64,000 nucleotides of DNA from assembly GCA_963663385.2 (NCBI GenBank), contig CAXXXD010000003.1, positions 1,568,001 to 1,632,000 of the forward strand. The letters run 5' to 3'. Numbering within the stretch: position 1 is the first letter of the stretch; each line of letters starts with the position of its first letter. Positions 488 to 12,664 of the stretch are shown in pieces. A program made the translations under genes and the position numbers. The stretch comes from Oceanispirochaeta sp. Lineage in GTDB: Bacteria > Spirochaetota > Spirochaetia > DSM-2461. The notes under the pieces are model-generated. The model was not told where the DNA came from, did no database searches, and saw only the letters and a program-made list of their open reading frames with translations.

Positions 488-1411
488 TCAGATCGCCAGC
501 AGATCGTCCAGGTACTGTTCGGCATTGAACTCGGACAGATCGTTCAATCCTTCTCCATGCCCTACAAAAGAGACGGGGATTTTCAGTTTTTTATTGATAG
601 CCACAACCAGGCCCCCCCGGGCAGTTGCATCATACTTGGTTAAAATAACCGCATCCACACCAATGGCTTCATGGAAGATCTCCGCCTGCTGCAGACCGTT
701 CTGACCTGTTGTGGCATCGATAACAAGAATCTTTTTGTACTCCCCGTCCCCTTTCAGGTTTGAAGAGATTATCTTGTTGATTTTCATCAGTTCGTTCACC
801 AGGTTCTTCTTGTTATGCATCCTTCCGGCTGTATCCGCCAGAATAAGCTCTTCACCCTGAGAGTGGGCAGATGCAATGGTATCGTAGATAACTGCTCCCG
901 GATCGGATCCGTGTTTCTGGGCTACAACCCGGAAACCGGTTCTTTCTCCCTGAATCTTAAGCTGATCGATAGCAGCTGCACGGAAAGTATCCCCTGCACT
1001 TAAAACAATTTTGGAAAATCCTTTTTTCTTATAGTACTCTGCCAGTTTGGCTATGGTGGTTGTTTTACCCACACCGTTTACACCGAGAACAAGGAAAAGG
1101 TTCAAGTCATCCCTGGAAGGCATGAGATCTGTCGTAATAAGGTGTTCGGAAACAACCTGTTTCAGTTCGGCCAGTATGGTATTCTTATCTTTCAGTTTAT
1201 CCTTTTTGACCCTGGTCCTCAGTTCATCAACCAGTTCCATTGTAACGACACCGCCCATATCACCTGAAATCAGAACTTCTTCAAGTTCTTCATAGAATTC
1301 TTCCAGATTCCCGCCGGATCTGGAGAAAAGTTCTGCAATCCGGCTGCCCAGGTTACCTTTTCTGGCAGTGGTATTTTCTGTTTTTTTATTATTTTTTTTC
1401 CAATTAAACAT
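488..1411 (-). CDS. ftsY: Signal recognition particle receptor FtsY
   Basis: GVNGVGKTTT, DTFRAAA, DTAGR, DATTGQNG and TKYD..ARGG SRP-GTPase motifs. Confidence 0.97.
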   Translation of the reverse strand: MFNWKKNNKKTENTTARKGNLGSRIAELFSRSGGNLEEFYEELEEVLISGDMGGVVTMELVDELRTRVKKDKLKDKNTILAELKQVVSEHLITTDLMPSRDDLNLFLVLGVNGVGKTTTIAKLAEYYKKKGFSKIVLSAGDTFRAAAIDQLKIQGERTGFRVVAQKHGSDPGAVIYDTIASAHSQGEELILADTAGRMHNKKNLVNELMKINKIISSNLKGDGEYKKILVIDATTGQNGLQQAEIFHEAIGVDAVILTKYDATARGGLVVAINKKLKIPVSFVGHGEGLNDLSEFNAEQYLDDLLAI

Positions 1412-1421
1412 GAATTCCTCG

Positions 1422-2900
1422 CTAATCCTCTGTGGATTCTTCAGCAGCTTTTATATAATCCTTCAACTTGAACAGCGTGTTTATCAATAAAGCACCGCTG
1501 ACTGTAACGCCTCCCAGAAAAAAGTTATAGGAAGACTCGGATGCTTTTTGAGCATCCAACGCTTTTTCATAGCTGCTCTGACTGCCTGTTGTATTCCAGT
1601 CCAGTGCGTAATTATAATACATATTGTATTGGTTTTGGTAAATGCCATAGATGATAAGAGGAGCTCCCATTGATAGGCTGAACCAGCCGAGAGAGCGATA
1701 GAATCGGCTTTTGGCATCATCAAACGCCTGCTGCCTGTTATACTTCTCCTTACTCAGTTCGACGGTAATACTGTTTCCGTCAAGCTCCCAGGAGGGAGAA
1801 TGAAAAGATTCATACCCGTCCAGGCTGATTTTTACATCATTTGAAAAGTCCGGGCCGGGGACAGCAAGCGGTGTATACCCCATCCAACTGGATCCGAAAT
1901 AGACATCTGCACCGGGAGGATCGGAGAAAAAGTACATTTTTTCAGATTCCTCTTTCTCCAGCGCTACATCCAGTTCGACACGGCCCATTCCAGGCAGATA
2001 AATCTGCTGACTCCGGGATGTATAACCGTCTTCACTGACTTTAAGAGTGGCATAACCGGGTTGGGCAATTTTCGTCAGGGCATTCCCCACACCTATGACT
2101 TCCCCGTCCAGAGAAACGATACAGCCGGGAGGATCCGTGTGCACCTGCAATTCCGACCAGGTTCGCCCCAGAACTTCTATCCGCATCTCGCCGGCGGCTT
2201 TTCGGATAATGGAATTCAGCTCATCTTCCTGTCCTACACCGGACCAGGAGTAAACAGGATCCTCCTGAACCCGGCTGTAACAGTTAAGCTCCAGAAAAAA
2301 AAGCTCATCCAGTCTTTCCAGTTTTCCCGTCAGAAGTATATCCAGGTTATTCTTCTCCATAAAACGGGTAACCTGCCGGTCCCTGGGACAGCTGTCAAAA
2401 TCCATGTACTCTACAGGAAGAATATCCTCCAGTTCAATAAGATCAGCATCCAGCCGGTACCAGGCTTCCTCTTCCTGCATTTTCTCCCTGATGGATTCGC
2501 TGTAACCATTATAGGTCTCGGTTTTCTGCTCATCACTATTGTCAGAAAAAAGCAGTTCATCTCTCCGGGTATAAAGAGCATCAACGGTGTTTCGGGTTTG
2601 ATTGATCTGGTCATTAATATAGGAGGATTTAAGGAAGTCTTTCTCTTCCAGGGATAGGTTATGTTCAGTTATATCCCGTAGTTCCTCTTTTAATAACTGG
2701 GGCAGGCTATCGCTCAGATATTCAAACCTGTCATCCAGGTTTGAAACGGCCAGCCGGCAAATGCCGGCAACCCAATGATCCTTGTTCACCCTTATGTTGT
2801 CAGGAATCAGAGACCCCTCCCGAGCGTTCAATCCCCGGGTATTGAAAGTTAGAATCGATAAGAAAAAAAAGGTGAACCGGAGGATTGAAATTCTACTCAT
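1422..2900 (-). CDS. PEGA-domain membrane/exported protein
   Basis: Signal peptide; two PEGA-like units (TDPPGCIVSLDG; SDPPGADVYFG..GYTPL); C-terminal hydrophobic helices. Confidence 0.75.
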   Translation of the reverse strand: MSRISILRFTFFFLSILTFNTRGLNAREGSLIPDNIRVNKDHWVAGICRLAVSNLDDRFEYLSDSLPQLLKEELRDITEHNLSLEEKDFLKSSYINDQINQTRNTVDALYTRRDELLFSDNSDEQKTETYNGYSESIREKMQEEEAWYRLDADLIELEDILPVEYMDFDSCPRDRQVTRFMEKNNLDILLTGKLERLDELFFLELNCYSRVQEDPVYSWSGVGQEDELNSIIRKAAGEMRIEVLGRTWSELQVHTDPPGCIVSLDGEVIGVGNALTKIAQPGYATLKVSEDGYTSRSQQIYLPGMGRVELDVALEKEESEKMYFFSDPPGADVYFGSSWMGYTPLAVPGPDFSNDVKISLDGYESFHSPSWELDGNSITVELSKEKYNRQQAFDDAKSRFYRSLGWFSLSMGAPLIIYGIYQNQYNMYYNYALDWNTTGSQSSYEKALDAQKASESSYNFFLGGVTVSGALLINTLFKLKDYIKAAEESTED

Positions 2901-3258
2901 TTCCCCTGCCGGCCCGGTTGATCGCCGAAATGAGTCTCTTTCTCTGAAAAGGTTTAACTATATAATCTACCGCGCCGAGTCTTATGGCCTGTATTATCTT
3001 TTCCTGATCACTTAAGGAGGAGCACATAATGACCCGGCAGTCCGGGTAGGCCTTTTTTAGGCTTTTCAGAGCCTCTACACCGTTCATCCGGGGCATGATA
3101 ATATCCATCAGAACCAGATCGGGTAGAAGGGACTTATAGCGGGAAAGGCATTCAATGCCGTCTCCCGCCTCTCCGATCACGATATGACCGCTTTCGCTAA
3201 CGATATCAGAGATGATTGATCGCATGAATGGCAGGTCATCCACAATCAGGATTCTCAT
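2893..3258 (-). CDS. Single-domain response regulator (CheY-like)
   Basis: ILIVDD, LMDIIMP (phospho-Asp), VKPF; ATGA overlap with the prfB stop. Confidence 0.9.
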   Translation of the reverse strand: MRILIVDDLPFMRSIISDIVSESGHIVIGEAGDGIECLSRYKSLLPDLVLMDIIMPRMNGVEALKSLKKAYPDCRVIMCSSLSDQEKIIQAIRLGAVDYIVKPFQRKRLISAINRAGRGNE

Positions 3259-4365
3259 CCCTGCGAGTTTCCCGACCAGAGGTACTGCAGATAAGCTTCA
3301 ATAAAAGGATCCAGATCCCCATCCATTACATTCTGGATGTTGCCGGTTTCCCATCTGGTTCTAAGATCCTTAACCATTGTATAGGGATGGAAAACATAGG
3401 AGCGGATCTGGGATCCCCAGCCTATCTCCTTTTTTTCCGCCGCAGAAGCAGCCCTTTCTTCATCCTGCTTCTGTTTATAATACTCATACAAACGGGATTT
3501 CAGCATTTTCATGGCAATTTCACGGTTTTTCAACTGACTTCGCTCATTCTGACACTGAACCACAATATTCGTCTCCAGGTGAGTCATACGGATCGCACTG
3601 CTTGTCTTGTTAACATGCTGACCGCCTGCTCCGGAGGCCCTGTAGGTATCAACACGGATATCCTCGGGTTTGATATCCACCTCGATGGTATCATCAATCA
3701 CAGGTGAAACATATACAGAGGCAAAGGATGTATGCCTTCTGGCATTGGAGTCAAAGGGTGATATTCTTACCAGACGGTGTATACCTCCCTCGCCCTTCAG
3801 ATAACCGTAAGAGTAGTCGCCGTCAACCTGAAAAGAGATGGATTTGATGCCGCCTTCAGCCTCGATCAGATCCATAACTGTTATTTTATATCCTTTCCGC
3901 TCAATCCATCGGTTATACATCCGGTATAGCATACTGGTCCAGTCACAGGCTTCCGTACCGCCGGCACCGGAGTGGATTGTAACAAACGCAGAAAGGACAT
4001 CTGTCTCTTCACTGAGAAGTTCAAGGGAGTTAAGCTGATCAAAAACTTTCCGAACACTGTCCAACTGGCTTTGAATCTCACCTTCAAGGGATTCATCACC
4101 CTCTTCTACGGCCAGTCCAAAGAGTTCCATCAGGTCCTCCATATCAGTAACCAGTTTTTCCCATGGTTCATATTTATTTTTCAGTCTTTTTAACTGTGCC
4201 AGTTTTTTTTCGGCACTTTCGCGATCATTCCAGAAATCGGGATCTCCCGATTCGATTTCCAGTTCACGGGCTGCGCTTTTCAGTTCAGCCGTGTCAAAGT
4301 CGCCTCCAGGTATCCGTAATCTCCCCGTTAAGGGATTTCAACTGAGATGAGATATCACTTAGCAT
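3255..4365 (-). CDS. prfB: Peptide chain release factor 2, translated through a programmed +1 frameshift
   Basis: SPF and GGQ motifs; ATG at 4365 with GGAGG RBS; 23 codons end in CTT TGA C, and the +1 frame continues open into ORF 3255..4142. Confidence 0.96.
4293..4307 (-). other. prfB +1 frameshift cassette GGAGG-CGA-CTT-TGA-C
   Basis: Internal SD-like GGAGG (4303-4307) 3 nt upstream of CTT TGA C (4299-4293), the canonical RF2 autoregulatory signal. Confidence 0.95.
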
Positions 4366-4654
4366 TTGTGCCTCCGTTATTTTTATCTTTTAAAATATTG
4401 CGTCTCCACCGTTTTTCCGTTAATGAAGTAATAACAAGTTTCCCTTCTATAGGATATTGATAGATTCTGATAGAATCATAAAAATCCGTTGCCCTGTCCA
4501 GATCCAGTTTTAAACGGGACAAATTGTTCTCGTTTATACTCAGGGATTCAAATGTATTTTTTTGAATTTGTTTAAATCCGTAACGGAAGAGCAAGTTCTG
4601 AACAACCTTTTCACTATCTTCGTTCCCAAGATCAATTACAATGGATACAAACAT
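4355..4654 (-). CDS. Stand-alone Cas2-like (Cas2/VapD ferredoxin-fold) protein
   Basis: About 100 aa; MFVSIVID (strand 1 ending in Asp), LLFRYGFKQIQKNTFE (compare YG..RVQ.SVFE), DSIRIY; alternative start at 4660. Confidence 0.72.
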   Translation of the reverse strand: MFVSIVIDLGNEDSEKVVQNLLFRYGFKQIQKNTFESLSINENNLSRLKLDLDRATDFYDSIRIYQYPIEGKLVITSLTEKRWRRNILKDKNNGGTNAK

Positions 4655-4663
4655 GATCATTAT

Positions 4664-4692
4664 ACTCTATTTGCGTCTTGCCAGGCTGTCAA
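4664..4692 (-). promoter_or_regulatory. Sigma70-type promoter for the Cas2-like/prfB operon
   Basis: TTGACA (4692-4687) - 17 nt - TAGAGT (4669-4664), directly before the start codon(s). Confidence 0.65.
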
Positions 4693-4699
4693 TACACAA

Positions 4700-6451
4700 T
4701 TAAAACAATGTGACTTCACCGCTGCTTGCGCCCTCTTCTTCCAGAGCAAAAGAACTTGTAATATCGGCCTTTTTCTTGTGAATAAAAATCGTAAACTTAT
4801 CAATAAGATCCTTTATTTCGTTTCCCCGCAGTTTCCACTCCGAATAGGGACTGGCCGCAAGGGCATGATCGAGTTTTTCCTTGTATTGATTCTTCTGGGT
4901 ATCTACAATCCCGGTTACATCGTACAGTTTTTTCATAAGATCCTTCATTGTACGCAGATCTTTTCTTGTCATCTGATAGAATTCATCAAAAGCCTGTCCG
5001 GCTTTCACAATTTCCAGGGTACAGTAGTCTACTTTCTCATGGGAATCCGAAACCCCTTCAAGCCCTTTTCTCAAATCTACTATAAATTGTTCAAGCTGGG
5101 CTGCATCATCCGTAAAATCCTTGAAATAGTCGTTAAATAACCTGTCGGTACTTTTCCTGAAATCACCAATGATGCGTGTAAGAACTTCAACATTCTGTTC
5201 TATCGAGTCTGTACGATTATTAATATTCTCAATAATGAAATTCATATTCTCCAGATGTGGGAGTTTGGCTGCCTCAACCCGACTGGATATGTTGATTGTC
5301 TTGACCCAGTTGATTATCCGCACAAATCCGTTGGATGATTCTTCCAGCTTACCTATCTCCTTTAAAAGATGACTCAGATTCTTTTTAAGAGACTCCCTGC
5401 TGAACCCTTTACGGAATATTTCCGAATTCTGAGAGATGGATTTCTGAAACTCCCGTATCTTCAGAGAATAGGAATCATTCCCTGACTGATTCAGGAAAGT
5501 CTCTCCGGATTTCTGAATGGTCAGCATCATTTCGGACAGATCATCCGATTTTTCCTGAAAGAGTTTATAGGTTTCATCAATTCCCTCTCCGATTTCACTC
5601 AGGATATCTTTACAGAACGAGTAAACCTGGTATTGATATGTCAGATAATCCAGCTCATCCTCTGTACTGACACTGCTTACCTCCAATCCTTTCTGAAACG
5701 AAAGGATTACATGATCAATGGACTGCCTTACAATATCGTGCTTCTGAACCTCCTGAATAATATGGTAAAGGGGGTCTCTGATACCCCCGACTCCTTTCTG
5801 GAGTTCTGATACAAGGATATGGATTTTATCCTTATACTCCTTGATAAGCTTCAGCATATTATTCAGATTTTCAGCGATTATATCCATTGCCTGATTCAAA
5901 TCGGATTTATCACTGTCAATATTGGACAGAAAGGAACGGAATACCCGATCCATATTTTCACCATGGTCTTTCAGTCTGTTACTTAGATAGGCTGAATCCT
6001 TCGATACCGCCTGAAGTTCTTCCGTTATATAGGGAAAAGCACCTCCGTTCTTACCAGCCTTGAGAGCGGTTACCATGGCATTGAGCGAAATCAGTTCCAG
6101 CTCTGCCGAATCATCCTCGATAACCTTGATATGTTCCTCAAAGAGGCTGGATTTTTTGAGTTCAACCTCCAGATTATCAAGAAAGCCGGAATCTTTTTCG
6201 GATAGTTTCGTAAAGATGATACCTTCCGAACTGACAATATTCTGAAGATAGGCAACTGATTCCTCCATGTCATCCAGCCCGCAGAAAGCGTTCTTCTTCT
6301 GCATATCCGAAGTATCTAGTGACCTGAATTTCTCATCCATCAAATCAAGAATCCGGGGATAGTTATCCGCCATCCCCATATAGACATTTCCGAGTTCCGC
6401 AACGATGTATTCCAGATTTTTAACTATTCTGATTTGATTTTCATTATCCAT
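4700..6451 (-). CDS. Soluble MCP-like (methyl-accepting chemotaxis) coiled-coil protein with two degenerate signalling-tip motifs
   Basis: [29 protein letters not shown] and [22 protein letters not shown]; no TM helix; last gene of the che cluster; start assumed at MDNENQ (6451). Confidence 0.7.
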
Positions 6452-7520
6452 TTGCTGCTTTCCTGACAACTTCCGGAGCAATTTTATTCAGGGGAAGAAC
6501 AGAGTGTACCGCTTGCCTTTTGATTGCTTCATTGGGCATTCCGAAAACAACGCAGCTGGCTTCATCCTGGGCGATATTGAAGGCGCCGGCCTCTCTCATT
6601 TCATCCATGCCCCGTGCTCCGTCATCACCCATTCCGGTCATGATGACTCCAATCGCATTTGGTCCCGCATAGCGGGCGGCCGAACGGAACAGAACATCGA
6701 CCGAAGGTTTATGGCGACAGACAAGGGGGCCTTCCTTGGTTTCAACATAATACCGCGCCCCCTGACGTTTCAGGAGGAGATGGCGGTTTCCGGGGGCAAT
6801 CAATGCCCGGCCACGGTATACTACATCATTGTTCTCCGCTTCCTTTACTTCGACCTGACAGAGACCGTTCAGGCGTTCTGCAAAGGACTTTGTAAAATGT
6901 TCCGGCATATGCTGAACGATGACAATACCCGGCGAATTTACCGGCATGGCTTCCAGAAAGACCCTGAGAGCTTCCGTTCCGCCTGTAGACGCCCCGACAA
7001 CAACAATTTTCTCAGTCGTATCGATAGTCAGGGGCCTATGTGATTTTGCCAGAATGGCATCGGCTGTTAATTTGGGAGGAACAGGGCCGGCGGGAACCTT
7101 TTTTTTAATTTTCGCTTTTGTTGAGGAAGCCGCCCGTATAACATCGCATATACGTATCTTCGATTCCTGCAGAAACTCTTTGGTTCCGACTTTCGGTTTC
7201 TGAATAATTTCCACAGCACCCAACTCAATAGCTGTAATAGCATTCTGACCACCCTTTTCTGTTTTACTGGAACAGATTATGGTAGGGATAGGATTTTCCG
7301 CCATCAGCTTTTTAAGAAAAGTCAGCCCGTCCATCTGGGGCATTTCAATATCCAGGATAATGACATCCGGTTTATTCTTTGCGATTTTTTTTTCACCTAT
7401 AATGGGATTCGGAGCTGTATCAATAACGTCAATGTCTTTCTCTTCTGCAATCAGTTGAGTGAGAGTCTGCCTGACAACAGCGGAATCATCAATAATCATA
7501 ACCTTGATTTGTGTTCCCAT
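6444..7520 (-). CDS. cheB: Chemotaxis methylesterase CheB (receiver + methylesterase)
   Basis: N-terminal REC domain; GASTGG, QHMP and MTGMGDDG catalytic motifs. Confidence 0.96.
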
Positions 7521-7531
7521 AAAATGCTCCT

Positions 7532-8380
7532 CTATGAAATTGATTTCTGATAGATTGTAGGTGCGACAGATAAATAGGGTAAATTTAAACCTGTGATGGT
7601 TTCCGAATGCCCCAGAAACAGATATCCTCCGGGATGCAAGTGATTATACAGCTGCATCAGGATTTTTTTCTGTTTCTCCTGGGGAAAGTAGATCAGTACA
7701 TTCCGGCAGAATATGACATGAAATTTCTTATTGATCCGGTAATCATTATCCATTAAATTAAGCTGACGGAACTGCATATTTTCCTGCAGAAAAGGTTTTA
7801 CCTTAACCTGTTCGCTGTTCTTATCTTTGCTTCGTAAAAAAAATTTCTTTTTTTGAGCAAGAGGAATATTCTCTATCCGGGACTCATGGTAGATTCCCCG
7901 CCGCGCTTTCTGCAGAACTTCCTGGGAGATATCAGTTCCAAAAAGGGTAAAATGCAGCTGAGGATGTTCGAAACGGATCTGATGAAGCACCATGGAAAGG
8001 GTGTAAACTTCCTCTCCAGTGGAACTGGCCGATGACCATATATCCAGGTGTACAGGCTGATTCGTCTGAAGAAGCGGGAGAACAACATTGTTTTCCAGAT
8101 AGATAAAGTGATCCGGTTCCCTGAAAAAATCCGTTTTATTCGTGGTAACCACATCAATCATAAAGGGCAGCTCGTTTTTCATCCCCTTTTCACTGAACAG
8201 GAAATCACAGTAATCACTATATGAATTAATTGAAAGGGTCCTCAATCGTTTATGTAACCGGGATTCCAGCATAACCTTTTTTATTTCAGGCATCCGGATT
8301 CCCAGCTCATCTTCAATGAACTTGCTTAAACGCTTGAAATCCTTCTGCTTCAGTTCCGGTCTGTCATAACCTTCTGTCAT
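7532..8380 (-). CDS. cheR: Chemotaxis methyltransferase CheR
   Basis: [36 protein letters not shown]. Confidence 0.95.
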
Positions 8381-10479
8381 CAGTTAACTTCCTTCCGGGC
8401 CAGAATGGATATTCTGTTAACATCCAGAATCAGTGCAACAGATCCGTCGCCTAGAATTGTAGCGCCGGTTATATAGCTTACACCCTTATAGAGTTTGCCC
8501 ATATTTTTAATAACAGTCTGATGATCCCCTATAACCTCATCCACCACCAGACCGGCCAGATTATTCTCGGTCTGAACCATAACCACATGCTCCCTCTGGG
8601 GAAGTTCACTGTCATCCAGAAAAATCTCCCTCAAGCGGATATAGGGAATCATTGAGTCCCTGTATTCCATCAAACGTTTTTTACCGTGTTTCGCACGGTC
8701 TTCACTGGTCAGTTCCAGACAGGCCTGAACGGCTGAAAGGGGAAAAACATATTTATCATCTCCGATACGGACGAGGAGACCTTCGATGATAGCCAGGGTG
8801 AAGGGAAGATTCAAAGAGAAGACAGTTCCTTCACCCGGTTTACTGTCGATAGAAATCAGACCGCCCAGCGCATCGATCTGTCTTTTAACAACATCCATGC
8901 CAACGCCCCTTCCGGAAACACTGGTTACATTGACAGCCGTGGAAAAACCGGGCATAAAAATCAGATCAAAAATCTCTTCATCACTCAGGTCGGCATCCGG
9001 TGAAACAAGCCCTTTTTCAATACCCTTTTTCAGAATCGCATTTTTATCCAGCCCCTTGCCGTCATCCCGAATCTTAAGGATAACATTGGCACCGGAATAT
9101 TTCGCTTCAAGGGTAATGGTACCGCTCGCCCCTTTTCCTTTTTCTTCCCGTACGGAAGGGGCTTCTATTCCATGATCAATGGAATTCCTGATAAGGTGAA
9201 TCAGGGGATCATTCAATTTTTCAATAACATTTTTATCCAGCTCTGTCTCACCTCCCAGAGTTACCAGCTGAATCCGTTTATCCAGGGAGGAAGAGAGATC
9301 TCTGACCAGCCTTTTAAACCGGGAAAATGTCGTGCCGATAGGAACCATTCTTAAACTCATGGTATTGTCCCGCAGATCAGAAGTCAGTCTTTCTATCTGT
9401 TCCGCCAACGAAGAGAGAGAGGATTTCTTTATCTGTGTAGCCAGCTGGGAAAGGCGGGCCTGAGCTGTTACGAGCTCTCCAACCGAATCCACCAGATTAT
9501 CCAGTTTTTCACTTTTAACCCTGATGGAACTGGAACCTGAATCACTCATGGTCTGTTTCAGGGTTTTGGTAATTTTCTGCTCTTCCAGGGCTGATTTGAT
9601 TTCGGCATCGCTGACCAGGCCTTTTTCAATCAGGACTTCTCCCATTTTTTTACGGGAATTGAGGACATCCTCCAGCTGTTCATTGCTGACCAGCCCCTTC
9701 TCCATCAGGATTTCTCCCAACTTCTTACCGCTGCCCGGATTGATGATGTCATGCCAGTCGGCAACAATCGAAACATCCACAGAGGAGGAAGAATCCAGAA
9801 AGATAAAGACATCTTTAATCTCATCAATACTATACTCAGAGATAAGAAAGATTTCCCACCTTATATAGGATTTATGAGGATTGTACTCCTCCAGCAGGGG
9901 TATTTTATCCGGATGACAAACGCTGTGATACTCCCCCAGGGATTCAAGTTCCTTCAAAAGAAGCAGAGGATTCGTACCGCTCAGGAAAATATCTTCGGAG
10001 GGTCTGAAATCGATCCTGTAGGTATTGAGGGTTTTATCATCAGCTTTGGTTTTCTCTGATTCTCTTCCTGCCTTGATATTTGATGCAGGAACGGATTCGA
10101 CACCAGCCAGTCTATTCAATTTTCCTACAATATCATTGGAAATTTCCTGAAACTCCGGGGTACTGTCCGATTCCGCTCCCAACATACTGGTTATATGGTC
10201 ACGACTTAACAAAGTCAGATCAATCAACTCTTTTGAAACTTTCATGTTTCCTTCCCGGACGCCGTCCAGGATTGTTTCAACTGAGTGGGTAAAACTGGAG
10301 ATTCCGTTAAAATCGAACATTGAGGCAGAGCCTTTAATTGTATGTATCGATCTGAAAACGGCTGCTATGGTTTCAGGATCATCGGGTCTATCTTCCATCT
10401 CCATAAGAAGATCTTCCAGATTCCCCAGTAGTTCGTATGCTTCTTCTTTAAAAGTTTCCTTGAACTGATTCTGATTCAT
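8380..10479 (-). CDS. cheA: Chemotaxis histidine kinase CheA with an MshEN-like insert
   Basis: Hpt FRSIHTIKGSA; HLIRNSIDHG, DDGKG, SGRGVGMDVV; C-terminal CheW domain; the ORF track's TTG start at 10497 is less likely. Confidence 0.96.
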   Translation of the reverse strand: MNQNQFKETFKEEAYELLGNLEDLLMEMEDRPDDPETIAAVFRSIHTIKGSASMFDFNGISSFTHSVETILDGVREGNMKVSKELIDLTLLSRDHITSMLGAESDSTPEFQEISNDIVGKLNRLAGVESVPASNIKAGRESEKTKADDKTLNTYRIDFRPSEDIFLSGTNPLLLLKELESLGEYHSVCHPDKIPLLEEYNPHKSYIRWEIFLISEYSIDEIKDVFIFLDSSSSVDVSIVADWHDIINPGSGKKLGEILMEKGLVSNEQLEDVLNSRKKMGEVLIEKGLVSDAEIKSALEEQKITKTLKQTMSDSGSSSIRVKSEKLDNLVDSVGELVTAQARLSQLATQIKKSSLSSLAEQIERLTSDLRDNTMSLRMVPIGTTFSRFKRLVRDLSSSLDKRIQLVTLGGETELDKNVIEKLNDPLIHLIRNSIDHGIEAPSVREEKGKGASGTITLEAKYSGANVILKIRDDGKGLDKNAILKKGIEKGLVSPDADLSDEEIFDLIFMPGFSTAVNVTSVSGRGVGMDVVKRQIDALGGLISIDSKPGEGTVFSLNLPFTLAIIEGLLVRIGDDKYVFPLSAVQACLELTSEDRAKHGKKRLMEYRDSMIPYIRLREIFLDDSELPQREHVVMVQTENNLAGLVVDEVIGDHQTVIKNMGKLYKGVSYITGATILGDGSVALILDVNRISILARKEVN

Positions 10480-10486
10480 TATAAAC

Positions 10487-10765
10487 CTACTTTTCAATCA
10501 ATGATGAAAAATCGCAAAGTACAAACCGTTCCCTTACGGGAGAGCTGATATTAACGATTTCCATGGATCGCCCGTTATCCAGACAGGACTTATTCAAACT
10601 GTACAGCAGCTGAAGCGCTGCAAAATCAATATCTGTGACTTCTGAGAAATCCAGTTGTATGTTGCTTTTTTCATCAACAGCCTTCAACAGATCAGTATGA
10701 AGAGATTCCACCTTTTGAATATTCAGATTCCCGTCAAGCTTTACTTTCTCTTTTTTCGGAGGCAT
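10487..10765 (-). CDS. STAS-domain protein
   Basis: LDGNLNI...LDFSEVTDIDFAALQLL pattern; lies between cheY and cheA. Confidence 0.85.
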   Translation of the reverse strand: MPPKKEKVKLDGNLNIQKVESLHTDLLKAVDEKSNIQLDFSEVTDIDFAALQLLYSLNKSCLDNGRSMEIVNISSPVRERFVLCDFSSLIEK

Positions 10766-10767
10766 AT

Positions 10768-11133
10768 CTACTCTCCAATGACTTTTTTAATAACAGCCAG
10801 AACTTTATCGCTGTCAAAGGGTTTAACGATCCAACCGGTTGCCCCCAGGGATTTCCCTTTTTCCATAATGGATTGTTGAGATTCCGTAGTAAGAACAAGG
10901 ATGGGCGTAAATTTATGGCGGTCTGTTTTTCTGAGCGCCTCAATCAGACCAAGCCCGTCAAGATTAGGCATATTAACATCGGTAATAACCAGATCTGCGT
11001 CTGTATTCACAAGGATATCAAGAGCTTCCTTTCCATCGGCCCCTTCAATAACATTGTATCCGCCTTCCTTAAGAAAAAACTTCAGGCTTTCTCTAACTGT
11101 GCGGGAATCATCCACTATCATTATTGTTTTCAT
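10768..11133 (-). CDS. cheY: Chemotaxis response regulator CheY
   Basis: IVDDS, ITDVNMP, LTTES, GATGWIVKPF; inside the che operon. Confidence 0.92.
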   Translation of the reverse strand: MKTIMIVDDSRTVRESLKFFLKEGGYNVIEGADGKEALDILVNTDADLVITDVNMPNLDGLGLIEALRKTDRHKFTPILVLTTESQQSIMEKGKSLGATGWIVKPFDSDKVLAVIKKVIGE

Positions 11134-11171
11134 TCGTTACTCCTGAAATATAGTTACTCTATTCTTTCTGT

Positions 11172-11657
11172 TTATTCAGCTATTTTTTCCTGCCCGGCTA
11201 CCATAGTAACCTCATTTACAGTCAGTACTTTATCAATATCCAGAACAATCAGAAACTCCTCATCCTTCCGGCCCATGCCCTTAATAAAGGCCGTATCTAT
11301 TTTTGTACCGATATAAGGGGTGGGTTCTATCTCTTCATCGTTCATTTCGATAACTTCTTTTACCGAATCCGTCAGCAGCCCCATGGTAACGGATTCATCA
11401 TCCAGCAGAACCTCTGTTACAATGATGCTGGTATCGATATCCTTAAGGGTTTCTCCCAGTCCGAATTTCAATTTAAGATCGATAACAGGAACGACGCTGC
11501 CCCGGAGATTGATAATCCCCCTCATAAAATCGGGCATCCTGGGAACTTTCGAAATAGTAGTGAATTCCTGAACCTCTTTTACATTAAGTACATTTAAAGC
11601 ATATGTTTCTTCATCAATTGTAAAAGTCAGGTACTGAGTTGTATTGCTGTCATCCAT
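11172..11657 (-). CDS. cheW: Chemotaxis coupling protein CheW
   Basis: QYLTF, GIINLRGSVVPVIDL, GLLTDSV. Confidence 0.95.
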   Translation of the reverse strand: MDDSNTTQYLTFTIDEETYALNVLNVKEVQEFTTISKVPRMPDFMRGIINLRGSVVPVIDLKLKFGLGETLKDIDTSIIVTEVLLDDESVTMGLLTDSVKEVIEMNDEEIEPTPYIGTKIDTAFIKGMGRKDEEFLIVLDIDKVLTVNEVTMVAGQEKIAE

Positions 11658-11724
11658 GAAGTTCTCCTCAAATATTCCAATTTATAAATAATTCTAGACT
11701 CAATTCAATAGCAATTCCAATAAA

Positions 11725-12318
11725 TTAAAACAATACAATATCATTACTGTCTTTTTTAATGATAAATGAATCTTCGTATTTTTTCTCATCCTTGGCAATA
11801 TGGCGGATATTCCTTGCAGATTTCAGCTTCTTTACCAGAACCCGGCCCTCTTTCGGGAAAAAAAGAATTTTCCTCCCCAAGGAACCTCCTGTATCGGATG
11901 AGAGTACCGGGATTTCTTCATTTTCAAGGAATTTCAAGGCGAAAAGGATATTCATTTGACCAATGCCTTTCCCATCCTCTTTCATTTCAAACATATCGCT
12001 TCCGCCGAATACCTTGGCTTTCAGATTAATCTTCCGGGACCCCATTTTTAACAGACTGTTTATCAGGATTTCCATGGCGTAAACACCATAACGGGTCTCG
12101 TCTTTAAGGAGCAACTGAGTATCCCTAAGGGATACATCCGTTTCCGGCAGGAGAAAATGATTCATCCCGCCCCAGTGATTCATCGTGTCAAAAAGTGTTA
12201 CTGAAACACAGGATCCTAATACTGTAGAGATAATTACATCTTCCTGACTGGCCATATATTCACCTGGATGAAGGGTGACATTCTTCAGGTTGAATCTATG
12301 ATAAAAACTATGGTACAT
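11725..12318 (-). CDS. cheD: Chemoreceptor glutamine deamidase CheD
   Basis: TVLGSCVSV, GGMNHFLLP, AKVFGG, DTGG..GRKI. Confidence 0.93.
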   Translation of the reverse strand: MYHSFYHRFNLKNVTLHPGEYMASQEDVIISTVLGSCVSVTLFDTMNHWGGMNHFLLPETDVSLRDTQLLLKDETRYGVYAMEILINSLLKMGSRKINLKAKVFGGSDMFEMKEDGKGIGQMNILFALKFLENEEIPVLSSDTGGSLGRKILFFPKEGRVLVKKLKSARNIRHIAKDEKKYEDSFIIKKDSNDIVLF

Positions 12319-12322
12319 CGAA

Positions 12323-12664
12323 TTAACCGGAATACTTCATAACAGCGGGGTCTTTAAAGAATTCCCTTACACTCTCCTGCAGTTCAGGGATATGTTCATC
12401 AAAGTAATAACCGTTTCCGCTCTGCTTCATTTCCAGCTCCATTTCAGCAGCAATGCGATGTATGGAAACAGCCCCTATACAACCGGCGATTCCTTTGATT
12501 TTATGGAGGAATTCAGCGCTTGCCTGAATTTGTTCGTTACTCCTTTCCTCCCGGGTTTTTTTCAGAAACTCCGGGATATCCTGAATAGCCATTTGAAGCA
12601 GTTCAGTAGAAAGGGAAACATCGTTTTCCGTGTATTTCAGAAGATCATTTTCGTTAAATATCAT
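12323..12664 (-). CDS. Stand-alone Hpt-domain protein
   Basis: FLHKIKGIAGCIGA matches the Hpt H-x-x-K-G motif; all-helical, 113 aa. Confidence 0.8.
   Translation of the reverse strand: MIFNENDLLKYTENDVSLSTELLQMAIQDIPEFLKKTREERSNEQIQASAEFLHKIKGIAGCIGAVSIHRIAAEMELEMKQSGNGYYFDEHIPELQESVREFFKDPAVMKYSG

Follow-up and report, generated by a model that had tools for sequence, protein, structure and literature searches.

A single-copy Cas2-family gene of spirochaetes that in one class lies ahead of prfB and is inherited outside CRISPR loci

Introduction

Cas2 is usually treated as travelling with cas1, and the CRISPR-independent roles proposed for it come from Cas2s that are still in cas operons. 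The Cas2C of Leptospira interrogans (PDB 7f84) is one of these: the sections of PMC9510766 that concern it report a DNase activity, a metal-independent RNase activity and a proposed role outside CRISPR. The nearest precedent in kind for a Cas adaptation protein found outside CRISPR loci is solo-Cas4, which, in the relevant part of PMC5704561, is described as mostly vertically inherited, independent of the CRISPR-linked form and of unknown function. It belongs to a different protein family, is broadly distributed in archaea and also occurs on mobile elements, whereas the family described here was found in two classes of spirochaetes only. The Cas2-like fold itself is known outside CRISPR in VapD (9kan, 6zi0) and in the central domain of PaaX (8a39).

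Here we analyse a small Cas2-like gene in a 64,000-nt stretch of an Oceanispirochaeta sp. genome (contig CAXXXD010000003.1, positions 1,568,001 to 1,632,000), referred to in full as the window. A first-pass annotation of this DNA had taken the gene for a domesticated, CRISPR-independent Cas2 co-expressed with RF2, a view that is supported by the clade the family forms, its independence of cas1, its loci, its fit to the prfB tree and RNA reads. A description of the family was not found in the literature searched, mainly the main texts of open-access papers, although genes of this kind might appear in supplementary files; nor is it mentioned in the excerpts consulted of PMC4331577, PMC12669027 and PMC3150331.

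Results

Position of the gene in the window

The gene lies on the minus strand at 4355..4654 and encodes 99 residues followed by a TGA stop. An in-frame ATG at 4660 adds two residues, and the open reading frame (4355–4660, minus strand) comes to 101 residues if counted from this first ATG. Translation probably starts at the second ATG, at 4654, since homologues begin with MFVS and the first ATG is upstream of the predicted transcript start. The Cas2 hallmarks that had been read from the translation, namely the strand-1 Asp, YGFKQIQKNTFE and DSIRIY, are present. The gene is followed on the same strand by prfB, encoding release factor 2 (3255..4365, ATG at 4365; TIGR00020, 460 bits), whose short first frame is closed by CTT TGA C at 4299–4293, the usual +1 frameshift site. 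Further along the minus strand are a CheY-like single-domain response regulator (2893..3258, assigned from the look of its sequence), an exported protein with a PEGA domain (1422..2900, PF08308) and ftsY (488..1411; TIGR00064, 310.8 bits). The TGA at 4357–4355 does overlap the start of prfB by 11 nt, as had been noted, and the Shine–Dalgarno-like GGAGG of prfB (4371..4375, minus strand) is embedded in the final codons of the Cas2-like gene.

Upstream and co-oriented is a chemotaxis-type gene (4700..6481, minus strand) with a weak BB0569-like match and an MCP signal domain; it adjoins the Cas2-like gene in just 2 of 80 related loci and is not conserved as a neighbour. By look, the region 4700–12664 is a chemotaxis cluster (cheW, cheY, cheA, cheR, cheB and a cheD-like gene). 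No terminator was found between this cluster and the operon promoter, so read-through from the cluster into the operon is possible. Past ftsY and outside the window, ahead of its first position (G000:C3:1558000-1568500), there are co-oriented lolC/D/E-like, mcsA-like and clpC-like ORFs, again by look, and an Rfam scan of the window gave no match. The GC3 of the Cas2-like gene in the window is 0.33, compared with 0.46–0.51 in the neighbouring genes. Over 105 loci the offset from prfB is small (0.56 against 0.61, correlation 0.89), and the low value in the window therefore gives no sign of recent transfer.

Cas2 fold and predicted dimer

The gene product passes the curated cut-off of the Pfam Cas2 model (PF09827, 31.2 bits against 23.8) and does not reach that of the NCBIfam cas2 equivalog (TIGR01573, 21.7 against 24.5). 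When its AlphaFold model (pLDDT 90.3) was compared with solved structures by VIA-align, the 13 best matches were all Cas2 chains with Z of 8.4–11.2, headed by 1zpw (Z 11.2, rmsd 3.2, 72 residues aligned). They were followed by PaaX at 8.0 and VapD at 7.3 (9kan) and 6.7 (6zi0); these two score below Cas2, and the gene product has no Pfam match to either at E up to 1. Foldseek returned nothing under E 0.001, its best ten rows all being Cas2 or Cas2/3. A search of the single sequence against solved structures gave no match at E up to 1, and the family profile gave weak Cas2 matches only, the best at E 0.007. In the comparison with Cas2 and VapD that the first-pass annotation had proposed, PF09827 is thus matched above its cut-off and VapD is the weaker, structural match.

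That the protein is a toxin of the VapD kind, or what is left of a CRISPR locus in decay, is in our judgement very improbable. VapD has a Cas2 fold, according to the portion of PMC3150331 that deals with it, and superposes on the model with an rmsd of 2.8 over 81 residues; moreover, one divergent family member (L179, G469:C34), located close to the end of its contig, is only 68 residues long, as a pseudogene or through an assembly error. Against this, the structural scores favour Cas2, and the family has neither the antitoxin neighbour of VapD nor the helix-turn-helix fusion of PaaX. No small partner gene lies upstream, where the promoter abuts the start, and prfB follows directly. In addition, the gene is single-copy, vertically inherited, under purifying selection and in a clade apart from the cas1-linked Cas2s, as described below.

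Prediction of a homodimer gave a score of 0.47, compared with 0.01 for the best of three controls, passing a mark that 20 of 30 solved pairs and 1 of 23 single chains also attain. Contact agreement in the model is at least 91% and partner pLDDT at least 80. The pass is likely to have come through likeness to solved Cas2 dimers. The predicted interface comprises residues 4–8, 30–34, 60–68 and 71–79, and residues 80–90 are not named in it. The dimer is predicted to be of the Cas2 type, the strand-1 acidic residue lying on the two-fold axis and strand 5 being swapped to strand 4 of the partner. Interface residues 8, 60, 62 and 63 match those of the Leptospira Cas2C, to which the gene product is 18% identical and which likewise has no array (PMC9510766, in the part cited above). 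That protein differs from the family in being encoded in a full cas1–cas8 operon and in keeping the Tyr-Asp and RVQ/SVF motifs.

Conserved and lost residues

An alignment of 40 sequences from the two classes is free of gaps over the first 88 residues, and E36, L45, K49, D60, R63, Q66, P68 and W83 are invariant in it. In common with the CRISPR Cas2s (1zpw, 6k2e, 3exc, 4es2, 4qdl), the family has the ferredoxin-like fold, the size, the acidic residue of strand 1, the Q and E of QxSVFE and the D-x-x-R before and in strand 4; a dimer with a strand-5 swap like theirs is predicted. Of 110 family members, 96 have D at position 8 in strand 1 and 14 have E, and D is found there in 27 of 27 CRISPR Cas2s. 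One divergent member, P0142, has Ser at this position and may mark a third lineage.

Other features of CRISPR Cas2 have been lost. The aromatic residue before the strand-1 Asp is found in 1 of 110 family members compared with 27 of 27 CRISPR Cas2s, and the Ser of QxS in 11 of 110 compared with, again, 27 of 27. The helix-1 region carries on average 1.75 K+R in the 40 family sequences against 5.1 in the 27 CRISPR Cas2s, a count that takes in loop insertions of some of the latter, and position 13 is acidic in 40 of 40 family sequences where 24 of 27 CRISPR Cas2s have K or R. The hydrophobic terminal strand of the CRISPR Cas2s compared is also absent. In turn, the family has gained Q66–P68 and a C-terminal patch in which W83 (40 of 40) is flanked by K or R on both sides; the median pI is 8.6.

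In a Cas1–Cas2 structure discussed in PMC11021501, the basic residues of helix 1 touch the protospacer backbone. Six residues, including Tyr9, Arg17 and Arg19, are reported to matter for the RNase activity of SSO1404 (PMC9510766, relevant passage only); as mapped by alignment, these three have no clear counterpart in the family, while the Asp, one basic residue and an aromatic do have counterparts. Given this, the replacement of Asp by Glu in 14 of 110 members and the loss of the aromatic, catalysis by the family protein may be gone. The gene product belongs to the Cas2 family but does not pass as an adaptation Cas2 in the tests applied.

Independence from CRISPR and mode of inheritance

As had been claimed, nothing homologous to cas1 or cas4 occurs in the window, nor does an array. 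The same is true of all family loci examined: cas1, cas4 or array-like repeats were found in 0 of 134, the figures for control loci being 27 of 28 and 23 of 28. Among 251 genomes of the class, 46 have both the gene and cas1, 69 the gene alone, 57 cas1 alone and 79 neither, giving an odds ratio of 0.92 (p 0.80; the genomes are not independent, being kin, and include drafts). Thus 69 of the 115 carriers have no cas1 match. In the second class, 8 of the 12 genomes with the gene and 3 of the 5 without it have cas1. The source genome has two CRISPR–cas loci on other contigs, each with its own cas1, cas2 and array. From their look these are of type I-C (G000:C1:338740-343233; cas7, cas4, cas1, cas2, array) and type II (C2:71767-73684; cas9-like, cas1, cas2, array).

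In a midpoint-rooted tree of 68 core columns, which are few, the 40 family rows occupy one side of a branch (SH-aLRT 98) opposite 42 other Cas2 rows, made up of 27 Cas2s from CRISPR loci and the 15 nearest outside matches. A tree of 95 distinct sequences has 34 well-supported splits, of which the prfB tree shares 26 and contradicts 2. dN is 0–0.13 and dS runs from 0.1 to saturation, with dN/dS of about 0.02–0.1 where dS is measurable. The conservation check that had been suggested comes out in favour of a CRISPR-independent gene: the prfB pairing holds in the window's class and the gene follows the prfB tree regardless of cas1; neither a lack of Cas2-fold matches nor nesting in cas1-linked Cas2 clades was observed. 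We rejected the possibility of a CRISPR remnant on the grounds of a single clade, single copy, purifying selection, fit to the prfB tree and occurrence independent of cas1.

The protein could still serve CRISPR in trans as an accessory, act as a decoy for Cas2-targeting anti-CRISPR proteins or be a stand-alone defence nuclease, and we consider this improbable. Its nearest profiles are Cas2 models, and it has been lost repeatedly, repeated loss being common among defence genes. An anti-CRISPR that binds and acetylates Cas2 has also been described (PMC11021501, in the part cited). Against this stand the lack of association with cas1, the presence of a dedicated cas2 at each cas1 locus checked in the source genome, the slow vertical evolution at a housekeeping locus and the absence of the family from the plasmids and viral contigs searched.

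Distribution

The gene is single-copy in the source genome and in all other carriers counted. In the phylum sample it was present once in 41 of 301 genomes, with narrow and broad profiles in agreement, 29 of these belonging to the window's class and the remaining 12 to a second class, in which they make up 12 of 17 genomes. In the class sample it was found, always once, in 115 of 251 genomes. Homologues at 88% identity are named Oceanispirochaeta, and the cultured carriers, going by record name, include Treponema sp. OMZ 840, Oceanispirochaeta crateris and Brucepastera parasyntrophica. In GTDB genomes 387 stretches encode relatives; for the best 80 of these, 77 titles name spirochaete taxa and 3 only 'bacterium'. 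When 1.84 billion representatives were searched in full with the profile, 73 matched, consisting of family members and fragments and then passing straight to ordinary Cas2-like proteins, and a search of the ESM Atlas gave spirochaete clusters only, named Cas2. No fused form was seen among 7998 longer candidates, which is weak evidence. In these searches the family was found in two spirochaete classes only, within which the gene is dispensable and has been lost in many lineages. A record titled Borreliella garinii (L088) has the gene in its typical context and may be wrongly titled; in the small-genome family f5, taken for Borreliaceae, the gene is present in 0 of 22.

Relation to prfB

In the window's class prfB lies directly after the gene in 29 of 29 loci of the phylum sample. 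It does so too in 76 of 76 named loci, after 4 of the 80 with less than 600 nt of downstream sequence had been set aside, and in 11 of 11 when twelve loci were chosen among the weakest-scoring class members (one was too short). This strict position in front of prfB is compatible with a functional tie. We consider it rather unlikely, however, that the protein works on the ribosome, as a partner of RF2 or on RF2 itself, in termination, rescue or mRNA quality control. In favour of such a role, besides the invariant order and the continuous RNA depth across the gene–prfB junction described below, the gene evolves at a rate near that of RF2 (tree length 18.0 against 14.3 for prfB, 95 sequences). 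Its loci in the second class, on the other hand, are without prfB in 12 of 12 cases, and ftsY is about as fixed a neighbour, being no more than 3.9 kb away in 60 of 62 loci, so that the entire operon is frozen. Furthermore, the 20 genomes tested among those of the class without a match all keep prfB with no such gene before it. No column of RF2 tracks the loss: of 125 conserved columns, 88 show no deviation in these genomes and the best deviates in 8 of 20.

The neighbours in the second class vary (TPR, GGDEF, OmpA and DUF3047 among 20 proteins scanned at 11 of the 12 loci), and no partner gene common to both classes was found among them. This absence also bears on a different explanation, in which the dimer is a non-catalytic adaptor for a housekeeping protein and reuses the scaffold role of Cas2 for a partner other than Cas1; we return to it in the Discussion.

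Much weight had been placed on the TGA overlap with prfB, and this does not hold up. An overlap between the two genes occurs in 3 of 96 loci, their spacing ranging from −11 to +122 nt; prfB has its own Shine–Dalgarno-like site in 91 of 96; and the stop codons of the gene are TAG in 29, TAA in 26 and TGA in 25 of 80 loci. Coupling to RF2 through the stop codon or the overlap was accordingly rejected, neither being conserved. The role in translation quality control that the first-pass annotation had put forward is likewise weakened, by the prfB-less loci of the second class, the equally fixed ftsY and the repeated loss of the gene. In one relative (L024) prfB is one continuous frame that lacks the CTT TGA frameshift site, so RF2 autoregulation seems to be lost there, and the Cas2-like gene is kept.

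Promoter and transcript

The operon promoter consists of a −35 hexamer TTGACA (4687..4692, minus strand), 38 nt before the start, and a −10 hexamer TAGAGT (4664..4669, minus strand) after a 17-nt spacer. From this spacing the transcript is predicted to start at about 4657, with a leader of about 3 nt. A promoter scan of the window found 2 sites where 1.9 were expected, which is chance level, so the site counts only through the conservation of its spacing in relatives: 64 of 80 relatives, and 12 of 12 of the most divergent class members, have a −35-like hexamer at 34–36 nt from the start on its upstream side. A Shine–Dalgarno-like 4-mer precedes the gene in 4 of 109 loci and, together with the conserved −35 spacing, this predicts a leaderless start. 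The promoter with TTGACA and almost no leader that had been proposed gains support from the spacing in relatives. A leaderless start was rejected as a special trait of the gene, since a spacing of 34–38 nt is found in 47 of 213 promoter–ORF pairs of the source genome, based on rough ORF calls. Predicted leaderless genes form a clear genome-wide peak at 34–38 nt, and several of them are regulators.

RNA was examined for one relative, L027, in stranded raw reads from three runs, all of a single study. Minus-strand depth begins ~7–14 nt inside the start codon, continues unbroken into prfB and is absent upstream, which supports a single transcript for the Cas2-like gene and prfB in this relative. 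The reads of the divergent gene likewise begin past its start codon; the first transcript base is not fixed by the reads. In two genomes that have lost the gene (L054 and L059) the promoter still precedes prfB. In L059 the site where transcription is predicted to begin still has an ATG, which is 34 nt ahead of that of prfB and in a different frame. We infer that the place before prfB serves a shared constitutive promoter rather than action on RF2.

That the reading frame is mainly a leader whose translation tunes prfB expression, the protein being secondary, seems to us highly unlikely. The gene is first on the transcript, and its dS is below that of prfB in most close pairs and lowest in the 5′ third (0.10–0.16, compared with 0.27–0.32 at codons 55–76). 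Nevertheless, the amino acid sequence is strongly conserved and the fold stable, the gap to prfB is variable, the gene shows no RNA folding signal relative to synonymous shuffles (z 0.20 and −0.49), and in the second class it is kept without prfB.

Discussion

We favour the explanation that the protein is a domesticated solo Cas2 acting on RNA and give it a probability of roughly 0.4, the choice of RNA coming from surface chemistry and family precedent only. It would be an offshoot of Cas2, inherited vertically in spirochaetes outside CRISPR loci, whose product would form a Cas2-type homodimer with the acidic pair at the dimer axis. The holding of prespacer DNA and the service to Cas1 would have been lost, the former because helix 1 is without its basic residues. 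The new basic-tryptophan C-terminal patch would then most simply be an RNA-binding surface, and any nuclease activity is proposed to be weak at most. The protein would thus be a dispensable housekeeping factor in RNA handling or turnover, kept at a steady level by the operon promoter. Against an action on RNA, the conserved patch could equally bind protein, and residues of the catalytic type are relaxed or unmatched.

These points lead to the non-catalytic adaptor introduced above, which we regard as a less probable but serious competitor. Cas2 is non-catalytic in E. coli adaptation (as stated in the part of PMC9510766 consulted), D is exchanged for E in 14 of 110 members while length is fixed and no gaps are seen over 88 residues, and an invariant Trp would suit a protein interface. 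It is opposed by the lack of a conserved co-located partner in the two classes, by the weak evidence from the search for fused forms and by the acidic residue at position 8 in 110 of 110 members. Compared with either, it is considerably more doubtful that a Cas2 adaptation protein was recruited early in spirochaetes as a ribosome- or RF2-linked factor in termination or mRNA quality, which would make it the first core Cas protein in translation.

The databases label genes of this family 'CRISPR-associated protein Cas2', so counts of CRISPR in spirochaetes can be inflated by them. More generally, the vertical inheritance, single copy and loci free of cas1 and arrays set the family apart from CRISPR Cas2, and we have here a natural and ancient cas1-free Cas2 clade under housekeeping-level constraint. 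With such a clade, clean natural deletions and cultured carriers, the function of Cas2 without Cas1 becomes directly testable.
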